Shown here one piece after another: positions 4,050 through 39,992 of a stretch of DNA of 64,000 nt. A program made the translations under genes and the position numbers. The stretch lies in assembly GCA_040285745.1 (NCBI GenBank), contig JAUFOR010000008.1, forward strand, positions 744,001 through 808,000, in the 5' to 3' direction. Below the pieces are notes generated by a model, which saw nothing but the letters and a program-made list of their open reading frames with translations, ran no database searches and was not told the DNA's origin. The DNA comes from Barthelona sp. PCE. Taxonomy: Eukaryota. Positions within the stretch are counted from its first letter, which is position 1. Every line of letters begins with the position of its first letter.

Positions 4050-4149
4050 GTCATAAAGATACAGTTTACTCTCCCTTACTTACTGCCCATTAACATGGAT
4101 GAAACTCGGGAAGGAAACTCAGTAAAATAGCTGTTTTATTTGATGTTAC

Positions 4150-7100
4150 TTATGTTGGTGGCGAGTATCCTACGTAATCGTCGATATTCTCGTCTGGAGA
4201 ATACCCATACGCAGGACTGCTGGTGTTGTATGTAGGAGACGCTGTTGGTGAGTATATGTTGGCATCCATTTGTGCGTAAGCGGGTGAAGTTGTGGGTGAA
4301 TAAGCTGGTGATGCGGCTGCGCTAAAGTTTCCATACGCTGGCGAAGATGTTGGTGAGAACATACTCTGCTCCATGTACGATGGGCTCGCTCCGCTATGGA
4401 ACTGTGATGCTGTTGTGGGGGAGTACATGGGTGACGCAGAGGCACCAGGTGTGATGCCAAACAATCCATCTGTTGGTGAGTAATCGACTTCAGTGAGTCC
4501 TCCAGCAGGTGAAGCCTCAGGTGAAGCTCCTGAAGGTGTAATGCCTGTGAAAGCAGTCTCCGATGTCTGGTATGTGTATTGTCCACTGAGGGAGTCTGAC
4601 CATTGCTCGTCGATATCAATCTCAGTGCCAATATCCATTCCGGCAGGTGAAGCCATCATATCCGGTGTAAAATCAAACGCAGCAGGTGTCATGTTGGCAT
4701 CGTCAACATACATATCCTCATCAGGAGACATGCTGAGAGAGAGTCCTTGCAGATTCTCAAACTGAGTTTGCTGCATTCCCATCTCTGTGACGGGAGTGCC
4801 CTGCATGTCAACACGCTCATCAATGATGAAATCTTTCGCCCTGTGGCGTGTGGATGAGACTGACGATGACATGACCTTGTCAACATCAACAAAGACGTCG
4901 AAGGAACCAGTGCCGAACTTACCAGGCAAACCGCAGATTAGACGCTGTGAGGGTCCCTGAAGTGTATCACGTTTGAAGTTCATAGCACCCCGTGCCAAAA
5001 TTGGGCCCATGAGCTCGACAGTAGCACGTTGAAGACAATCAGTGGGAAGCTTATTGACACCGTGACGATCCATTGATACAAAATCACCAATGTGTGTCAT
5101 ATAATCGCACAGGATCGAAAGGTGGCGCTGGTTAACGTACGATCCATCGAAAGAGATAACTGCCTTGATTTCATTGAGCAGCTGCTGACGCGCTGCTTCG
5201 ATACCAAGTGTATTCTTGATTTCATGAAGATCGTTAGAAACCGTGCGTGTTGCATCGACACCAGGAATCTTGAGGACATCAGGAAGATTGGAACCATCCG
5301 TCTCAAGCACCCAAATAGGTTCGGTGTTGAACTCACTTGTATCTGTGTTGTAAGTTGTCATAGAGCGCTGCTTACGGAAGATACGTTTAATACCCTGTAC
5401 ACCAGACAGTTGCACACGAGCAACATTCTTGATGAGTCCCTGTCCAATGAGAAGCAGCCGACTGTCCACCTCTTCGGTGACGCCCATCTGCTTCGTTGCA
5501 AGCGGCATACGCACTCGAACAATTGGGTTGCCAGATGTTGGGCCACTAAAGGCGACAAAAGCCCCAGCCAATACGTCTTCTGCCTGACAAATCTTTGCAA
5601 TCTCCTCTGCGATGTTGGGAACGAGGTCCTCCATCATCTTATCAATGAGGATTTGACGATTGAGCTCGAAACGGACAACAAACGGAGACATAGCAGCAGG
5701 GTCGTGCAGAGAAACAGCGAGAGAATCGCTAAGGAACTCCTGATCGCTCTTTACCAGAGAGCGTTCATCGGTTGGATCAATCAAAACACTTGCATTCAGC
5801 AACAGATCCTCAACCGTGACAACCGTCAGGTCAGAACGCATGCGGAATGAATACGCGGCCTCAATCTCCTCCGGAGTCTGATGCGCCATACCTAACACAA
5901 ACTGCGCGGGTGCCTTATCCAGATATACCGTAAGAGAAGGTGTCTTCGGTTCCTTCTTACAATCAAGCAGTTCAGATAGACGAGGGATACCTAGAGTAAC
6001 GTTCTTAGCTGAAATACCAGCGTGGTGGAACGTGTTCAGCGTCATCTGTGTTGCAGGTTCTGCAATTGATGTAGCGGCGACAACACCGACAGACTCACCA
6101 GGAGCGACAATACATCGAATGAAGATGTGCTTGATCTCGGTGAGCAGCCAGTCAAAGTCCTGGGATGCAATCTTGCACTTGAAGATGAGGTCCCTTGAAG
6201 ACAGGCGTGTAAAGATGAGTGTTTTTAGTAGGAAAAGCGGATCTGCCTTGGACATTGCGTACACACCCGTCTTACTTGCGGGAAGAAGTGCCTCAAGTGA
6301 ATCTACCAATTCACGTACATCCTCAATGATTTTCTTAGGGGAGAGATCGACAACGACATCGTTAATATGACTTCTCGAAATATCGTTAATGAGACGATCA
6401 AAATTGATAGGCATTGGGTACTTGTCGGGTAGGCTGACACGACCTGTACTAGGATCGGATTCGTATCCGAGTGGGTACAGAAGATGCTTGATACGTGCAC
6501 CATACATTTGAATGTTCTCCAGCTCGGCTTGAAGCAAGTCAAACATCTCAGCATCAGTCTGAATGAGGTTGATGAGCGATGGCGTGAGAATACCGACACC
6601 GTATGAAGGGTTAGTAATATCGTGTGTATAAAAACGAGCAATCTCGCCTGCAGTCATGTTAATAACGCGGAACTTCTGCGGAATTAAATAAGAAGCATCA
6701 AGACCATCCTCACCGTACAAGAATTGATATACCCAGTCCAGTGAATTGCGAACTGTACCATCGTAGCGAGCACTTAGATCCTCAAGAGATTTGACAAGTT
6801 TACGCTCAATGTAACCAGACTCTGAAGTCTTAACCGCTGTATCTGACAGACCCTCACGACCACCAGAAGCGTGGAAGAAGAACTCTGTGGGAGAAAGACC
6901 CTTGAGGTAGGAGTTGACGACGAAACCCTTGGAGAGCGCCTGCCGATCGTTGGAGAGGAACAGAGGCAATGATCGATTCGCAGTGTATGAGAACGCAATA
7001 CGTTTACCTTCGACATTCTGTTGACCAACCGTGGCAATAATCTGCGCGATGTTAAAGAGCGAACCCTTGGAACCTGCGGTGACCATATTCTTAATGGAGT

Positions 7101-9303
7101 TGTGCGTCGACAGACGAGAGTATACCTGCTTACCGACGTTAGAAACGGCCTCATTGAGCACCCTGTTAACGTTACGTTCGAAAGCCTGCTCCATTGTTTC
7201 ACCTGGCTGCGTATCGATACCTGCAGCTGATGTAGCCTTATCAACAAACTTAGACACCTCCTGTTTGGCGTTCTGAATGGTATGCCCAATTGTGTTGAGG
7301 ATGTTGCTTGATGCAATCGTATCCTTGATACCAATCGAAAACCCGCGGGTTAGCATGTACTGGTTGAGAACCCGCTGAACTAGATTCAGGAAGAGACGTG
7401 CCTTATTGGAGGACTGGGCGCTGTCCTCGGACTTGGACTCAAGCCAAAGACGGTGCACTAGAGATCCTGTTGACTTTCCCATTGATTTCTTATCCAAGAT
7501 ACCTGCGATGTGTTGACCGTTACGGATCAGTACCTCTGTGTCGAGTGGGTTATAATTGAAATCGTCACCAACACCGCGTTGATGCTCATTTGCAATGGAA
7601 GTGAAGAGAAGACGAGACTCCTTTGCTCCAATTGAGGCTTCCAAAACTATAGAGATGACCTGTTTGCCGCTCCATAGAGGCTTGGGGTGCATAATGCACG
7701 GTGGGGGCACACGATCGGACCAACCATCAACCCAACCGAGTAGCTGGAAGAAGTCCTTCTTCTCCAAGAAGGTGTCACGCAGTGTCAGAAGACGGGAAGC
7801 CAAAAGAGCATCTTGTACCAGACCCATAACAGGTCTGTTTGATTGTGGAGATACAATCTGCTGCTCCACCTTCATAATATGCTGCAACTCTGCCTTGGCG
7901 GGAAGCGACTGTGGGAGGTGAAGATTCATCTCATCTCCATCGAAATCCGCATTGTAAGGGGATGTAACCGCAAGGTTGAGTCTAAACGTACGGAAAGGAA
8001 GGATACGAACACGGTGTGACATCAAAGACATCTTGTGAAGCGTCGGCTGACGATTAAAAGCAATGATATCACCTGTGAGCAAATGTCTCTCAACAAGATC
8101 TCCCTCTTGAAGTTTAATACCACGGCCTCCACCAAGAATCGCACGGACTTCATTGTTACGCATGTAGTAGTTTGCGCCCGGATAATCACGTGGCCCACGG
8201 TCTACCATCTCCTGTAAAGCACGCATGTTGTAGTGTGTAGCGCGCTCTGGGAATGTGAGACGTGTGGCAATCTCTGCTGGGACACCGATCTCATCGATGT
8301 CAATGATCGGATCACCAGTGATGACTGTACGCGCACAGAAGTTGACACGTTTTCCAACCAAGTTGGAACGGATCTGACCTGCCTTACCCTTAATACGCTC
8401 AATGATAGATTTCGAAACCTTGTTATCTGTCTTGACAATTTGTTTGCTGTTATCAAAATAACTGAACACACGTGCGCTGATGACGCTCGGATCGGGGTCC
8501 GACTTCTCTGTCTCTGCAATGATCGCCATTAGGAGCTTAGTCAGATCATCCTCTGCTGTGATCGATCCGGCAAGAATCTTAGGCCTGATGTTGTTCGGTG
8601 GGACTGCAAGACGCTCAATAATGAATCCTTTGATCTGATTGCGCGAGTCATATCCAATGAGGTTGAGGTGGGGCATGTGCACTTCGCTGAATCGCTTCAG
8701 CGCTTGTGCCGCCGGCACTTCTTGCTGAACTTCAATGTTTTCAAAAACATACTTGACCTCGTTCCAGCGCACAACGCTGATATCCGCATTACAATGTGCA
8801 CAAACTGGAGTTTTTGAACCGCGAATGATTGAAGCAATTGCTTTCAGTCGTTCAACAGGAGCAGGGATTTCGTCCAATGATCGTTCAATGATGCCCTTCT
8901 GAATTAATGTTTCCATAGATACTGTAAGATGATGACACTGTCGGCAAAAGCTTAATAACGCATCACGACATGTATCCTTGTACAAAGGGTGAAACACCGG
9001 TGTTGGGAGGTTTAAATATCCAAAGTGACCGTGACAGGTCTCTGAATTACCATGACAAGACTTGCAATTCTCTGATAACAAAACTGCACCAAGATGAAGT
9101 GATGTCAAAGACACTTGTTCTTCATCTTCGCGGTTCCTCGATTTAATCTCACCAACGGAATATGCTTTCTAAATGTTAGATGCTTTGTGTCCCACGAAAA
9201 AAAATACTATTGATTCGCTATCCCATGTTGAGAATGTTAAACCCTTGATGTTGCGGTACTTTCTGTTAAATTTCGACCCAAAATGCAAAGAACTCACTGA
9301 CAT
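4150..9303 (-). CDS. RPB1: RNA polymerase II largest subunit (spliced at the 5' end)
   Basis: NADFDGDEMN catalytic motif, GKRVNFCARTVI, EPATQMTLNTFH and an SP-rich C-terminal tail. Removing intron 9169-9207 joins the frame to ATG 9303 (…RNIKGLTFSTWDSESI/KAYSVGEI…). Confidence 0.97.
9169..9207 (-). other. 39-nt spliceosomal intron in RPB1
   Basis: GTATTT…CTAACATTTAG; removal deletes an in-frame TAG and restores the RPB1 N-terminus. Confidence 0.85.
9259..9297 (-). other. Possible additional 39-nt in-frame intron after codon 2 of RPB1
   Basis: GTGAGT…TTTAACAGAAAG has the same length and branch-to-AG spacing as the other introns, but it has no stop, so it is not required for the frame. Confidence 0.45.
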
Positions 9304-33537: not shown

Positions 33538-33667
33538 TGATTTTCTTCCAGAGTCTCATCCATGTTAACGGGTAATAAAGGAAAGTAATCAGATTCTTTA
33601 CAGAGATCTAAGTTCGGATATGGTGCCGCATACGGGCTACCTTCTTCAGAGTTTGGAAGTCCATACA
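33538..33667 (-). repeat. Split direct repeat B2 (130 bp), element 3' end
   Basis: Identical to 33815-33944. Confidence 0.95.
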
Positions 33668-33704
33668 TCTGAAAAATAGTAGTATTTCAATTACTAAATA
33701 ATAC

Positions 33705-33814
33705 AATAAAATAAATAGGAAACCTTAAAATGGTGAGAAATTGAAATACACCCGCATACGTTCTATTCCATTCTCTGTTCAAAATCAATTACAGGATCAT
33801 CCTGATCAGGACCA
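33705..33814 (-). repeat. Split direct repeat A2 (110 bp)
   Basis: Identical to 39514-39623; abuts B1. Confidence 0.95.
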
Positions 33815-36800
33815 TGATTTTCTTCCAGAGTCTCATCCATGTTAACGGGTAATAAAGGAAAGTAATCAGATTCTTTACAGAGATCTAAGTTCGGATATGG
33901 TGCCGCATACGGGCTACCTTCTTCAGAGTTTGGAAGTCCATACAACCATGCATAGAAACTTTCATACTCTATCTCCGAACTATCAATTCTCTGTCGAATC
34001 TCTGGCTCCTCAAAGGAGGGCTTCACATTAGTGAGGTAATACTCATGTGCTGAATTCGCTTGTTTCGACCACCTACCATGAATAGAACTATCGTCAACTG
34101 ACATATTTTGATCTACAATATATCCTGACCTGAGGGAATGTGGCGTCAACCTTGCATACGTGTCAGCATCGTATGGCAATACACCAATGTCCACTAGATG
34201 TTGCTGCACCTTTTTCATCGCTCCACTTATCTTTATGACCATTTTATCATATTTCACTCCGGGATGGCTTTCATCATATGTCATGTTGCCGGTATGAGGG
34301 TCGATCTTGTGGGCTTTGAAGATTGTCATTCCATCTTCGAGCTGTTGCTCCGCCCAGCATAAATATGCTACTAACCAATCGAGACCAGGTGTGTTAGAGA
34401 TATCCTCTATGGGGATATTCCACATCTTATTATCTCGGTTCGTTTTGGTATTACGGAAAACAACCGAGAACTCCTTCTTGTTTAGCACTTTAACTTCGTT
34501 GAACCTCATATCTTTGAGGTCCATGGTCCGAGCAGCAGTCAGGTAAGCTAACGCCATGTAAGCTAGCTGGGTGAGTAGCATTAAGAAAATACTTCTTCTA
34601 CTCTCCCGTGGTACTGTTTCGAGTTCCGTTTTGGTTGAAGTGATGAGTTCGACCATGACTAATTTGACTATGTCAGCAGTAGCTGCCATCTTGTACTTTG
34701 TGTCTTTGTCTCGAATAGTGGAATGGTAATAGGTAATACATCTTCTACCTATTGCCTGTTTCTGTTCGTCTGTCAATTTTTGTGAAAATTGGGGGTACGT
34801 GTACAGGAAGGCGTCAAACAGAATTCTCATTCTTGAGAAGTACGACCGATGAGTCGATCGCTTCCTAGAGGCGACTTCTACCCCTTTCTCTCCGTATTTG
34901 TGGAAGAACCAGTCATTCCAATGTTTGAACTCAGTACATTCTACCATCAGTTCGTTACAACCATGGATGCCCGTTTTCTTCTTAATATAATCACGAATCT
35001 CATTAAACATGTTTATCATACTCCTACGTGTCTTCAAGTCGTACATCTTCTTTAACGTGTCCATGACTGCATCGCTATGCATAAGAAGGGGACCACGGTT
35101 CACCTTTTCTTTAACCGGTGTTGCTGGAGGCTTTGATATCGTCAACTTTTTCGGGTCAATAATCATCTTTATCGATCCGTCATCTAATATCGAGTGTTCA
35201 ACTCTGGACCACAATGAGGTGAAAGGTACCTTTGACGGTAAGAGTACCTCGATAATCACATCGTGCTGTATGGCCTTAGTGACCAAAACTTCAATAGCTG
35301 TGTCTAATGCAACGTTGAGCGCAAAGACGCGTGAGTTTTGTCCTTCGTGACGAATGCTTAAATACGAGTGTGGTAAGTCTTGTGTGGCGCTCTCAATCTT
35401 TGACATGACCGGGAGTTCGACTTGTTCACCATCAAACGTCGTGGCAGTAATCTTTGGCGCTAGGTCGTCAAGTAATACCTGTAGATCACTGTCTAGTGTT
35501 CCCTTCAAACTAGGCTGTTCAGTGAGTACGTAGGCATTTTCAGTCTGTGAGTATTCTGGAAGCAGCATAGGTTCTGCCGTGGAGTCTGCTCTGCCGTAAA
35601 AGGCTCCCATGTGGAACATTAAGCCAGATTGTCCTTTGGATGACTGGTGTGTCTGCTTGTAAAAGGGGGCATGCATCACTGGGATGCTCACTGTCGGAGG
35701 TACAGTTGGTCGCAGTTTTATGGTCTTTGCAGGCAGCATCGACTTTATCTGGTACATCTTCTCCCTTTCGCCGATGGCTATACCTCGCGACAGATAATCT
35801 GCAGCAATGTTGAGTTTCGTCTGGACATACATAATGTTGATTCGGATGTTAAACTCATCAGCTTTTTCAAAGATCATCCTAATGACCTCGTTCAGCTCCT
35901 TATTCTTCGATTTTCCTGCTCTCAGGCCATATACAACTGCTGAGTTGTCATTACAGAGGAGAAAGTCCGAGTCCGGATTTTTCTCAGCCAACTTACTGAA
36001 CATAGAGTAAAGTGCTACAACCTCAGCTTCCATGATATGATGTGACTCTTTGCAGATTTGCAAGTCAAGATCACGCATTAACGTACCTGGATCCTCGACG
36101 GATCGATTGAGCTCATTTCTCAATTTCTCTCTCTTAAACGCAAAACCTCCACGGCCTTCAACTTTCTCGTTTAGGCATGCATCAGTGGCGATAATAACGT
36201 CATTAGCACACGCGTTGATGCGTCTCTGCTTATTTTCTTTGAGTAATTCTTTAGCTGCTCTGATCGCGAGTTTGTAGTCATCAATCAAAGATTCGGGGAT
36301 CAATCGGGACCCAAGTCCCTTGGATGTAAATAGAGGGACAGTGTCCTGGGAAATATTGATGTTTAAAATTTTTCTCGTGGAATCACGAATAATTTCTTCT
36401 ATCTGATCTGCATGACGTTTCAATCTAGGGCATGCGAACGATTTGGATGCTAATTTTCCCGCTAAACTCTTGGCTTGCAACAATGTGACCCCATCCTCAC
36501 TGTATAAGTTATCCAAGTGTTCTTTGATGGCTATAACCATCGCATCACTCTTTTTCTTTGCGATTCTGACCTTGGTGGTGAGGAGATCACTAGTGTCAAA
36601 CTCAAAGCCCAGCCAATCAATTATCTTGGTGGGTTCTACGATGGATTTCTCTCTGTTGATCTTGATTCCTAGGAGGAAACAAAGGGCCTTTATCGCTCTT
36701 ACAGTCCTTCTGACCATCTCAATGTCGTTGTGATAAATGAGAAAATCATCTACGTACACCTCAACGCATCCACCATACTTGTTCACAATTGAAGCTATCA

Positions 36801-38319
36801 TCTTGGATACTGATATCGAGATGTTACCAGCAATGGAGGACCCAAACGGAGTCTTCTTGAAGCGATAGTAATCCCCTTTGTGTTTAAAGGCAAAATAGTT
36901 GGATAATTCATCTTCCATCTTATTGTGGTAAAACCATGAAGATAGATCGATACTGGCCATATAAGCTCTAGGAGGGATCAGTTTCATGATCCTCTCGCCA
37001 GGAAGAGCAACTGGTAACATTAAACTTGCGTCATGGGCCTCAGGGGCATTCATGATAACTCGTACGTCACCATTATCTTTAGGGATCGCAAACACATCAT
37101 TAACAACTGCTATCTCGTCAATCTGATCCTCTTCTACCTTCTCCACGAAGGGAGCTATGGTGTCAAACGCCTCGTCTGCTACAGCATCATCGAATGTCTT
37201 TGGGTCTCTGCGTAAGTATTGTTCCTTAACTTTTTGTGCTAATTCTTCGTGCATCCAATTCTCTACTGATACTTCGGTAATACGTTTGCAAACTGCTGTG
37301 GGGTTGTTGATTTCAAGTTCTACCAATATTTGCCGTAGTATCTGACGTTGTCCATCGTGCCTCAAGAAGTGTTCTGAGTCATCAATGAACCAATTCTTGT
37401 CGTCTTTGAGGTCTAACCCCTGTTGTGCAATGTATGTATCCTCACATTTACCAGGCCATGCCTCTACAATCCAATTGGTTTCGCTATCGTGTGTCGCATT
37501 GACCAATCCATTCACAAAAACTCCTATTTTGTTCATATTATCTCTGGGCTTCAAGTATGGTTGGCTCAATTCGCGATCATAACCGTATTCTTCCACCTCA
37601 GTTCGACGTGGTGGAATGATATCATCAATTTCTTGTGGTTGGATATTTATCTCAACCCTACGGTTCTCTTGTGCTATGTGCCGCTGGACTTGTATGTTCT
37701 CATCGGCTAGCTGTTTCGTCTCAAGGTGTTGCTCATCCATCTTTTGGCTAACACCTTGTATATCGCTTTTAACACTTTCATTCTTCTCACCCACTTTTTG
37801 AATTTCTTTCTCGAGCACGTTCATTTTCTGCTCAAGCTTCTGGTGGGACTTTTCTACACTCTTCAAGAGGATCTTCTCATTGTGGTGCTTAATAGTTTCA
37901 GCGATCTTCTTCTGTGATTCCAGTATTTCATCACATACTCCAACTGCGCATTCATATATGTCATCGCGTTGGGCCTTCATATCCAGTTTAAGAACTTTAG
38001 CGTGCTTCTTAAACATCTTGATATCTTGTTCAAGGGACGTGTGAGCATCTTTGTGTCTGATGTCACCGTGTTTCGCAACTGTGCTCTTGTCATCAGTGCT
38101 CTCCTTCTTCTCCTTTGATTTGGTGTTGCCATTGTTGTCACCTTCAGGAGGTATTTCAAACGTTGTGGGTGTATTGTCCTCATCTTCGTTTGCTTCATTA
38201 ATAATGGGGGTGCGTGGCTCCTTGAGCTCTTGAACGCCTTCCTCACTTATTTTCTCGCGTGTAACTCGTATCTTGTATCCGTTACGTATCCACGTTCCAC
38301 TGGGGGGATCTGGAGGCAT
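33763..38319 (-). CDS. Retrotransposon ORF2: coiled coil + reverse transcriptase + RNase H + tyrosine recombinase
   Basis: RT: FAIPK..GDVRVI, SIDLSSWFYH, PFG, YVDDFLI, WLGF. RNase H: ATDAC, EAEVVAL, NDNSAVV, NIAADYLSR. YR: TAARTMD, NTKT, HSLRSG, HGRW, HEYY. Confidence 0.95.
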   Translation of the reverse strand: MPPDPPSGTWIRNGYKIRVTREKISEEGVQELKEPRTPIINEANEDEDNTPTTFEIPPEGDNNGNTKSKEKKESTDDKSTVAKHGDIRHKDAHTSLEQDIKMFKKHAKVLKLDMKAQRDDIYECAVGVCDEILESQKKIAETIKHHNEKILLKSVEKSHQKLEQKMNVLEKEIQKVGEKNESVKSDIQGVSQKMDEQHLETKQLADENIQVQRHIAQENRRVEINIQPQEIDDIIPPRRTEVEEYGYDRELSQPYLKPRDNMNKIGVFVNGLVNATHDSETNWIVEAWPGKCEDTYIAQQGLDLKDDKNWFIDDSEHFLRHDGQRQILRQILVELEINNPTAVCKRITEVSVENWMHEELAQKVKEQYLRRDPKTFDDAVADEAFDTIAPFVEKVEEDQIDEIAVVNDVFAIPKDNGDVRVIMNAPEAHDASLMLPVALPGERIMKLIPPRAYMASIDLSSWFYHNKMEDELSNYFAFKHKGDYYRFKKTPFGSSIAGNISISVSKMIASIVNKYGGCVEVYVDDFLIYHNDIEMVRRTVRAIKALCFLLGIKINREKSIVEPTKIIDWLGFEFDTSDLLTTKVRIAKKKSDAMVIAIKEHLDNLYSEDGVTLLQAKSLAGKLASKSFACPRLKRHADQIEEIIRDSTRKILNINISQDTVPLFTSKGLGSRLIPESLIDDYKLAIRAAKELLKENKQRRINACANDVIIATDACLNEKVEGRGGFAFKREKLRNELNRSVEDPGTLMRDLDLQICKESHHIMEAEVVALYSMFSKLAEKNPDSDFLLCNDNSAVVYGLRAGKSKNKELNEVIRMIFEKADEFNIRINIMYVQTKLNIAADYLSRGIAIGEREKMYQIKSMLPAKTIKLRPTVPPTVSIPVMHAPFYKQTHQSSKGQSGLMFHMGAFYGRADSTAEPMLLPEYSQTENAYVLTEQPSLKGTLDSDLQVLLDDLAPKITATTFDGEQVELPVMSKIESATQDLPHSYLSIRHEGQNSRVFALNVALDTAIEVLVTKAIQHDVIIEVLLPSKVPFTSLWSRVEHSILDDGSIKMIIDPKKLTISKPPATPVKEKVNRGPLLMHSDAVMDTLKKMYDLKTRRSMINMFNEIRDYIKKKTGIHGCNELMVECTEFKHWNDWFFHKYGEKGVEVASRKRSTHRSYFSRMRILFDAFLYTYPQFSQKLTDEQKQAIGRRCITYYHSTIRDKDTKYKMAATADIVKLVMVELITSTKTELETVPRESRRSIFLMLLTQLAYMALAYLTAARTMDLKDMRFNEVKVLNKKEFSVVFRNTKTNRDNKMWNIPIEDISNTPGLDWLVAYLCWAEQQLEDGMTIFKAHKIDPHTGNMTYDESHPGVKYDKMVIKISGAMKKVQQHLVDIGVLPYDADTYARLTPHSLRSGYIVDQNMSVDDSSIHGRWSKQANSAHEYYLTNVKPSFEEPEIRQRIDSSEIEYESFYAWLYGLPNSEEGSPYAAPYPNLDLCKESDYFPLLPVNMDETLEENHGPDQDDPVIDFEQRME
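33815..33944 (-). repeat. Split direct repeat B1 (130 bp), inside the ORF2 3' end
   Basis: Identical to 33538-33667. Confidence 0.95.
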
Positions 38320-38469
38320 AGTAGGTATTTCAATATTATGTTTCTTAACGGTCGTTGATTCGATAGCATTGGTGAGACTTGTTAGATGCTCACATAATTG
38401 CCCAAATTGAGTTGATAAATTCCCTGAGTTTACAAATGATGGGGATTCATCATCAACGACCGAACCTTT

Positions 38470-39489
38470 TCAATTCTTGTCGGTATCAGACCTCTTCTGA
38501 TAACTGTTGTTACGATTGTTCTTCGTACGCTTGTTCCTGTACGACTGTTCTTGTTTAAGGAAAAGCCTTTGTCTTTCAACACGCATTGTAAAACCCAATT
38601 TTGTGAGGAGAGTGTTCAGAATTTCCTCTCCACTTCTTGGGTCTTTCCAAACACCTTCAATGCCTGAAAACGTGTGGAACACATCATCTAGCCTTTCCAT
38701 AGGGAGTCCATGGTCCGACACCTGTTTTATCAACCATTTGGACAAGCCAAATGCAGACATCTTACCCACTACAACAGCCATCTTAATCACTTGATCACTT
38801 GTGAGTTTCTTAACACCAGCATCAACATCTAATTTGGATATGGCTCTAGCTGCCGTGTTCAGCAGATTTGCTGAGAAAGGAGCATCCTTCATGCCTAGTT
38901 CCATCAGTCTGTCATACTCAGACTCTTCGACCTCTCCAAAATCATTATTCAACCTGAGAAATTCGTGCTTAGTCAATCTAGGTCCCTCTCGTTGGATCAC
39001 AATTTCTCGCTTTCCAGCCTGTTTCTCTTGATTATCAAGACCCTCATATAAGTTCATCATGACGTTGATGTCATTTCTATTGGCTGTTCTGTAACATACG
39101 CTCTGCCCGTCACATTCTAACTTGACTCTCATGCTCAATATGGATTTCACAAAGAAGCACTGAGGACAATCTTTCGTCTCCTCATCATCACTGTTTACGA
39201 AACAAGACACGTCCAGAAAATCCATTAACTCTTCAAGACTCACTTTGGTGACCATCTCATCGCACTCACCCTTACCTATCAGGCCTGATAGCAGGGACCT
39301 CAAGCAAGCTGACCAAAAAATATTGCGAGTTAGTTCTGTAGTAAAAATCGCATACGAATGGGACTCAACTTCATCGATTACCATGTCATCTTGGAATGAC
39401 GTGCTCACATTGTACCTAAACTTACGGGACGCTTTTGTTTTCACCATTGTTACATATTCATCAACTGTTGCTTTCTCTACTGTTGTCAT
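38470..39489 (-). CDS. Retrotransposon ORF1 (gag-like by position)
   Basis: First ATG downstream of A1 (MTTVEK); basic N/R/K-rich C-terminus; ends at a TGA in frame with ORF2. Confidence 0.8.
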   Translation of the reverse strand: MTTVEKATVDEYVTMVKTKASRKFRYNVSTSFQDDMVIDEVESHSYAIFTTELTRNIFWSACLRSLLSGLIGKGECDEMVTKVSLEELMDFLDVSCFVNSDDEETKDCPQCFFVKSILSMRVKLECDGQSVCYRTANRNDINVMMNLYEGLDNQEKQAGKREIVIQREGPRLTKHEFLRLNNDFGEVEESEYDRLMELGMKDAPFSANLLNTAARAISKLDVDAGVKKLTSDQVIKMAVVVGKMSAFGLSKWLIKQVSDHGLPMERLDDVFHTFSGIEGVWKDPRSGEEILNTLLTKLGFTMRVERQRLFLKQEQSYRNKRTKNNRNNSYQKRSDTDKN

Positions 39490-39513
39490 TTGTGTTTCTG
39501 TACTAGTATACTT

Positions 39514-39623
39514 AATAAAATAAATAGGAAACCTTAAAATGGTGAGAAATTGAAATACACCCGCATACGTTCTATTCCATTCTCTGTTCAAAATCAATTA
39601 CAGGATCATCCTGATCAGGACCA
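39514..39623 (-). repeat. Split direct repeat A1 (110 bp), element 5' end
   Basis: Identical to 33705-33814. Confidence 0.95.
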
Positions 39624-39767
39624 GGGTCTCCAACGATTGATCACACGACTATTTTCGATATACTTAACCCTTAATTACATGAAATGGAGAAGAAAAACTG
39701 TGCCGGTAATTGTGAATAACCAGCACTATACTTTACACTTTGGTTGCAACTTTTCTGTCAAAATGAT

Positions 39768-39841
39768 GCCTCTTTAGCTCAGTTTGGTAGAGCGACGGAC
39801 TCTTAATCCGTCGGTCGGGGGTTCGATCCCCTCAAGGGGTA
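39768..39841 (+). tRNA. tRNA-Lys (CTT)
   Basis: GCCTCTT/AAGGGGT acceptor; GCTC…GAGC D arm; ACGGA-CTCTTAA-TCCGT anticodon arm; GTTCGATC; T-run downstream. Confidence 0.95.
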
Positions 39842-39919
39842 TATTTTTTGTGTGTATCAATATTATACTACACATGAATTTATATTTTTTTTACCTCTGA
39901 GTAAAATTCCGTAAACTAA

Positions 39920-39992
39920 TTCTCCATCGTTTAGTGGTTTATGATCCCAGATTCTCACTCTGGAGACCGGGGTTCGATTCCCCGTGGGGAAG
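39920..39992 (+). tRNA. tRNA-Glu (CTC)
   Basis: TTCTCCA/TGGGGAA acceptor; CCAGA-TTCTCAC-TCTGG anticodon arm; CGGGG-TTCGATT-CCCCG T arm; T5 terminator. Confidence 0.92.

Follow-up and report, generated by a model that had tools for sequence, protein, structure and literature searches.

An in-frame TGA between the two open reading frames of a divergent Ngaro/PAT-type retrotransposon of Barthelona sp. PCE: lineage-specific mutation or recoding site

Described systems and the retrotransposon in the window

Gammaretroviral readthrough of the MuLV type, at the stop codon between gag and pol, takes place in the context UAG-G, and the RNA structure associated with it starts about 8 nt after the stop. 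Split direct repeats, laid out as A1 - ORFs - B1 A2 B2, are typical of tyrosine-recombinase retrotransposons of the Ngaro/PAT type. DIRS1 and PAT have a methyltransferase-like domain that separates RNase H from the recombinase, whereas Ngaro lacks it. The Panagrolaimus group of nematodes hosts PAT elements. [quoted passage not shown] ORF1 of the Ngaro elements of Cafeteria burkhardae has been described, in the accessible part of that study, as a module that can be exchanged or lost and is tied to target choice (PMC8547959). In the literature open to full-text search, which does not extend to subscription articles (the first accounts of Ngaro among them), no description of stop-codon readthrough in tyrosine-recombinase retrotransposons was found, and frame overlaps between pol and recombinase were the sole relevant mention in the accessible portions of two articles (PMC3783388, PMC3266345).

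We analysed a window of 64,000 nucleotides from Barthelona sp. PCE (assembly GCA_040285745.1, contig JAUFOR010000008.1, positions 744,001 to 808,000 of the forward strand); all positions given below are those of the window. A retrotransposon of 6086 nt was found on the minus strand (33538..39623), bounded by split direct repeats in the order X1 - ORF1 - ORF2 - Y1 X2 - 37 nt - Y2. Repeat X is 110 nt long, its 5' copy (X1, 39514..39623, minus strand) lying directly upstream of the ORF1 ATG and its 3' copy (X2, 33705..33814, minus strand) containing the ORF2 stop codon. Repeat Y is 130 nt long, with an internal copy within the 3' end of ORF2 (Y1, 33815..33944, minus strand) and a terminal copy (Y2, 33538..33667, minus strand), and the distance from X2 to Y2 is 37 nt. 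The two copies in each family are 100% identical, and the arrangement as a whole is the A1 - internal - B1 A2 B2 pattern of split direct repeats that characterises Ngaro-type elements. The final codons of ORF2, some 60 in number, sit together with its stop in repeats Y1 and X2. Since X2 holds the ORF2 stop, the identical X1 has this stop codon too, a short way upstream of the ORF1 start but in another frame. Searches with tblastn and blastn revealed no further copy of the retrotransposon in the 64-kb window. A stretch of 64 nt that adjoins the 3' end of the Rpb1 gene (4054-4117) is 78% identical to repeat Y; the similarity may mark what is left of another element, or it may be due to chance.

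Two tRNA genes were found on the plus strand beyond the 5' end of the element (39623): tRNA-Lys(CTT) at 39767-39842, 144 nt away, and tRNA-Glu(CTC) at 39920-39992, 297 nt away. Insertion close to tRNA genes is practised by some retrotransposons of compact genomes, and the placement observed here may be another instance of it.

ORF1 (38473..39489, minus strand, ATG at 39489) encodes a protein of 339 aa in the gag position. It matched no Pfam family, and its predicted structure (pLDDT 34.2) was too poor for a comparison of folds. ORF2 (33763..38319, minus strand) extends from an ATG at 38319 to a TAG at 33763 and encodes 1518 aa, laid out as a long N-terminal region (about 400 aa between the ORF2 start and the reverse transcriptase), a reverse transcriptase (RT) with the motif YVDD, RNase H-like motifs, a conserved region of about 280 aa and a C-terminal tyrosine-recombinase-like domain. 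The RT was identified by Pfam RVT_1 (E = 2e-13, 51 bits against a cut-off of 29.6), and its nearest named matches were Panagrolaimus proteins. No Pfam match to an aspartic protease or a DDE integrase was obtained with the whole ORFs at E up to 0.01, nor to a protease or DDE integrase at E up to 1 with residues 341-830 and 1031-1908 of the protein read through from ORF1 into ORF2. The ~280-aa region between RNase H and recombinase is conserved in P0004, a fused relative described below, and had no Pfam match at E up to 1. The C-terminal domain found no match in Pfam, PHROGs or the PDB sequences, and the AF2 model of this segment (pLDDT 35.8) was again too poor for a comparison of folds. On inspection, however, R135, D138, K163, H265, R268, W288 and Y298/Y299 of the C-terminal segment proved invariant between ORF2 and P0004, and we take the spacing of these catalytic residues to resemble that of Cre recombinase. 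Judged by these residues, the C-terminal domain of ORF2 is likely to be a tyrosine recombinase.

The element thus shares with Ngaro/PAT elements of the order DIRS the split direct repeats, a gag-position ORF1 of unknown fold, RT and RNase H-like motifs followed by a recombinase-like domain, and the lack of a match to a protease or DDE integrase. It differs from them in being very divergent, with the RT alone reaching the Pfam threshold and the recombinase recognisable by its catalytic residues only, and in having a close cousin, P0004, in which ORF1 and ORF2 are fused. The ~280-aa region could be neither assigned to the methyltransferases nor excluded from them, and the class is left at Ngaro/PAT. 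Apparently, then, this is a young, single-copy tyrosine-recombinase retrotransposon of the Ngaro/PAT type, order DIRS. With gammaretroviral gag-pol it has in common a gag-position ORF and pol in one frame, a single stop between them and some pairing potential downstream; however, its stop (in the context UGA-A) is not conserved, the structure 12-15 nt past the stop is weak and unexceptional, and the fusion product is putative. The parallel with Tca2 lies in a microbial host with a small genome, gag-UGA-pol in frame and a predicted downstream pseudoknot, but the UGA of Tca2 is a feature of the element family, whereas here a single copy bears the stop. The Ngaro elements of Cafeteria burkhardae likewise have Ngaro-type repeats and an exchangeable ORF1, which in Barthelona is swapped between loci; they differ in having three separate ORFs (Gag-like, RT/RH and YR), and no sequence relationship to them was detected in our searches.

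The interrupted reading frame and its homologues

An earlier sequence-only reading of this DNA had described ORF1 and ORF2 as a single frame split by one TGA, and its coordinates were exact: the TGA (38470..38472, minus strand) stands in the context AAT TGA AAA, with AAT TGA at 38475-38470. Translation also confirmed that the stop is followed by a spacer of 50 sense codons (38320..38469, minus strand), KGSVVDDESPSFVNSG...EIPT, which runs in the same frame into the ORF2 ATG at 38319-38317, and that reading through ORF1, spacer and ORF2 would give 1908 aa. The remaining two frames of the spacer contain stops. A C6 run is present at 38309-38304. Apart from the TGA the element is intact over 1907 codons.

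The first 1200 residues of the through-read protein were used as the query in an exhaustive HMMER search of 1.84 billion representative sequences. Only four proteins fell below an E-value of 1e-30, namely the two ORFs of the window themselves, P0004 (1893 aa) and P0005 (425 aa), and a word-indexed search added P0152 (422 aa). P0152, P0005 and P0004 are all recorded as hypothetical proteins of Barthelona sp. PCE, and the comparisons with them were made on their protein sequences. P0152 matches ORF1 at 86% over the query and P0005 at 33%. At the position of the TGA both have Arg (KN-R-KGSVVDDES, against KN-stop-KGSVVDDES in the window) in an alignment that is ungapped around the site. Both read on past this Arg through the spacer, where 37 of 50 residues are identical to those of the window and both indels are in frame. 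Arg was therefore observed in two out of two ORF1 homologues that align across the site, but their junction sequence is one and the same, so that they count as one independent lineage. P0004 is a single fused ORF with ORF1-like, spacer-like and ORF2 parts, showing 42% identity to ORF2 over 1523 columns and 24% to ORF1, and it has the distal motifs of the spacer, STTVK and PP..G.W..G.KI.VT, in common with the window. An alignment gap of about 33 columns extends across the stop position in P0004, which for this reason does not settle whether Arg gave way to the stop or the stop to Arg. Altogether the stop is present in none of the three related proteins, two having Arg and one being fused with a gap at the site.

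The initial Met of ORF2 is replaced by Leu, Leu and Val in P0152, P0005 and P0004, respectively. Since this Met is not conserved and P0004 is fused, the design of the group appears to be one long polyprotein, in which ORF2 would not be an ancestral separate cistron. These alignments support the view that elements of this group naturally encode the ORF1-spacer-ORF2 through-read as their protein. The open spacer had been judged to exceed chance (a probability of 0.03 in the sequence-only reading, and about 0.014 with the base composition of the window). This judgement stands, and coding homology explains it: such a spacer would be rare in non-coding DNA, but this one is homologous to translated sequence in the relatives. 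Its persistence in relatives was also borne out, P0152 and P0005 being translated through it with in-frame indels only. Persistence of the stop was not, for Arg occupies the site in both aligning homologues; a sense codon elsewhere had been named beforehand as the mark of a private nonsense mutation, and it is what the nearest relatives carry. As to the proposal of programmed readthrough, the through-read product finds its counterpart in P0152, P0005 and P0004, but a conserved, structure-stimulated signal is unsupported.

Clustering at 90% identity gave one member each for ORF1 and for ORF2, and no second TGA-bearing copy is on record in these clusters. Among 7998 scored candidates, drawn by a word filter that is incomplete, there was no ORF2 homologue shorter than 834 aa at E up to 1e-15, and no ORF2 protein is on record beside P0152 or P0005. 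According to the accessible part of the Barthelona sp. PCE genome paper, repeats were masked before gene prediction (PMC11316075), so an unannotated ORF2 near P0152 or P0005 is no proof that ORF2 is absent there. Pattern scans for relatives gave 250 and 592 matches in two scans of metagenome contigs and 129 matches in viral contigs, none of which was confirmed.

Comparison of the ORF1 proteins revealed a boundary close to the stop. The body of ORF1 is identical between the window and P0152 at 276 of 300 positions (92%), the tail at only 24 of 39, and the body of P0005 agrees with that of the window at 75 of 295 positions. P0152 and P0005 nevertheless have an identical tail of 90 aa from about residue 329, despite their very different bodies. 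The recombination breakpoint between ORF1 types and junction types thus lies near residue 329 and precedes the stop by eleven codons, and the combination of divergent bodies with an identical tail implies that ORF1 types have been exchanged by recombination at this point. From these alignments ORF1 looks like an exchangeable module. The stop itself sits at the boundary between the ORF1 and ORF2 modules. A stop is created by 820 of the 17172 possible single-base changes in the ORF, and only 3-5% of these stop-creating substitutions fall within residues 300-400 or 310-365.

The sister junction lineage is interrupted at the same boundary by other means. After 'PPD' the tails of P0152 and P0005 correspond to the +1 frame of the window (38226-38309, minus strand) and reach a stop 31 codons later, so that ORF2 at those loci would be in the -1 frame. 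The break between ORF1 and ORF2 in this lineage therefore lies about 55 codons further on and comes about by a frame change, at two loci. This hints that a translational barrier at the ORF1/ORF2 boundary may be under selection. Mutations clustering near a template-switch junction could, on the other hand, explain the intactness and youth of the element together with the frame break of the sister lineage, without selection.

RNA folding downstream of the stop and the genetic code of the host

The stem and loop pairings named in the sequence-only reading exist at the positions it gave: GTTGATGA (38457-38450) can pair with TTATCAAC (38418-38411), TCCC with GGGA (38424-38421), and GATGATG (38454-38448) with CATCATT (38441-38435). 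The last of these forms a 7-bp hairpin with a 6-nt loop (38435..38454, minus strand; -6.2 kcal/mol), which starts 15 nt past the stop. Fold energies and z-scores were calculated without a pseudoknot, the proposed second stem of which is 4 bp. For the 101 nt from the stop we obtained z = +0.48, with 133 of 200 shuffled sequences folding as well; the corresponding values were z = -0.69 (49/200) for 70 nt and z = -1.06 (31/200) for 47 nt. The 27-nt stretch with the 7-bp hairpin, which was chosen post hoc, gave z = -2.8, and only 2 of 200 shuffles were as good. A fold of equal stability at the same offset was found at 117 of 1868 codon positions elsewhere in the ORF for 27 nt, at 245 for 47 nt and at 291 for 70 nt, and over the lengths compared such positions made up 6-30% of the codons. 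The suggestion of a special downstream fold is not upheld by these pseudoknot-free folds: the RNA fold after the stop is ordinary and not unusually stable. No Rfam element was matched at the ORF1/ORF2 junction. Four codons (PSFV) missing from P0152 and P0005 contain the 3' arm of the hairpin, and stop and hairpin therefore occur together in the lineage of the window, a sample of one.

The host is a eukaryote poor in introns, with a compact and very small genome and a GC content of about 40%, and its genes in the window are cilium-related and core genes such as Rpb1, kinesins, SHMT, CEP19 and V-ATPase C. The Pfam match of the Rpb1 ORF (4150-8916, minus strand) to domain 1 begins as late as profile position 127, and the N-terminal part of the protein may be encoded in a separate exon or be divergent. 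The 28 ATG-to-stop ORFs of at least 200 aa in the window end in TAA (22), TGA (4) or TAG (2), a marked bias towards TAA. ORF1 of the element and a likely spurious antisense ORF are among the four that end in TGA, which leaves two clear host genes. A kinase ORF ends at a TGA 36 aa past its kinase domain, and no conserved gene is interrupted by a TGA. Reassignment of TGA as a sense codon was rejected, since the standard code yields complete conserved genes and the kinase ORF terminates at TGA. A tRNA scan of the window revealed no suppressor-like tRNA. Selenocysteine was set aside as well, since the relatives have Arg at this position.

Competing explanations for the stop codon

The explanation we prefer, and which may well be the right one, is that the TGA is a lineage-specific change from Arg to stop in a polyprotein gene that was ancestrally continuous. 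The TGA would then interrupt one gene in which an ORF1-like protein is joined to RT, RNase H and tyrosine recombinase, and an arginine codon (AGA or CGA, each one base from TGA) would have turned into TGA recently, either in this element or in its immediate parent. Most ribosomes on the full-length RNA would halt once the 339-aa ORF1 protein is complete. Synthesis of the enzymes would depend entirely on near-cognate decoding of UGA at background level (as Arg, Trp or Cys), if it took place at all, and the copy would be crippled or dead despite its recent insertion. We favour this explanation because P0152 and P0005 have Arg at the site and read through the spacer, because the cousin P0004 is one fused ORF that shares the distal spacer motifs, because no second TGA copy is recorded, the fold is ordinary and Rfam gave no match, and because the host uses TGA as an ordinary stop. 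As 820 of 17172 changes create a stop, one nonsense change in an ORF of 5.7 kb is not a rare event. If the TGA is a plain mutation, the value of the locus is descriptive: it would represent a new, very divergent and young family of tyrosine-recombinase retrotransposons from barthelonid-type metamonads, inserted beside tRNA genes and equipped with an exchangeable ORF1.

Several observations do not sit easily with a simple nonsense mutation. The stop falls at the module boundary, for which the chance is 3-5%, with the breakpoint eleven codons upstream; the element is otherwise intact and has identical repeats; the sister lineage has a frame break at the ORF1/ORF2 boundary at two loci; the 3' arm of the hairpin is specific to the stop-bearing lineage; UGA is only the second-rarest stop among the ORFs of the window (4/28); and the direction of the change is unsettled owing to the gap in P0004. 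Most of these observations also bear on a tentative alternative, which we regard as possible though on the unlikely side, namely that the UGA is leaky, whether programmed or selected, and yields a low ratio of ORF1-ORF2 fusion to ORF1 in the style of gammaretroviral gag-pol, aided by local context and hairpin. The sister lineage would reach the same end through a -1 frame overlap and the cousin P0004 through plain fusion. A leaky UGA would be in keeping with an open in-frame spacer that is coding, a stop at the module boundary, a young and otherwise intact element, the sister lineage's change of frame at this boundary, and a 27-nt hairpin that stands out against shuffled sequences (z = -2.8) and owes its 3' arm to this lineage. 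Of the three stops UGA generally leaks most, and Arg, which the relatives have at this site, is among the residues that near-cognate readthrough can insert. However, the stop is absent from all three related proteins, one TGA copy is known, the fold is ordinary in comparison with the rest of the ORF, and the hairpin begins as far as 15 nt past the stop. To our knowledge, UGA-A that lacks a CUAG or CARYYA-like motif does not count among the strong readthrough contexts. The UGA of Tca2 with its predicted pseudoknot, moreover, gave no readthrough in the reporter described in the accessible text of that report (PMC2194720). A conserved, structure-driven readthrough signal is probably not what the TGA represents.

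The two remaining explanations concern the ORF2 start and the reality of the stop. It is improbable, in our judgement, that ORF2 is made separately from Met391 (ATG at 38319), whether an internal promoter or a subgenomic RNA in the junction allows this or ribosomes reinitiate once ORF1 has been translated. An ATG heads ORF2 only in the stop-bearing lineage, but this Met is replaced by L, L and V in the relatives and the 50 codons upstream of it are conserved as protein. Reinitiation 150 nt past an ORF of 339 codons is, as far as we know, not expected in eukaryotes. A promoter in the junction does have a precedent in Tca2, again from the accessible text (PMC2194720). That the TGA is missing from the organism or its mRNA, through an assembly or polishing error or an intron that removes the stop, seems highly improbable. 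Deep short-read correction seldom leaves substitution errors in single-copy sequence. An error might be considered for a genome which its paper, in the part accessible, reports as a long-read assembly with short-read correction (PMC11316075), and an intron might be considered because a GT...AG pair, from GTCTGA at about 38491 to CAG 38424, spans the stop. This pair, the sole one examined across the stop, is however 68 nt long, which is not a multiple of three and breaks the frame, and the region is translated uninterrupted in both P0152 and P0005.

Lineage-specific mutation remains our preferred explanation of the TGA. Should the stop be used after all, readthrough in the style of gag-pol would be extended to an order of elements whose expression strategy is essentially unstudied, and a single genome would offer a natural three-way comparison of fusion, frameshift and readthrough. 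In its fullest form, which we consider doubtful, this would mean that three modes of coupling coexist in one genome, namely plain fusion (P0004), a -1 frame overlap (the junction of P0152 and P0005) and an in-frame leaky UGA (the window), with ORF1 modules swapped just upstream and the UGA as a true recoding site. Back-translation of 'HAGKY' from the sister lineage onto the DNA of the window suggests a putative in-phase G GGA AAA heptamer at the P0152 and P0005 loci.
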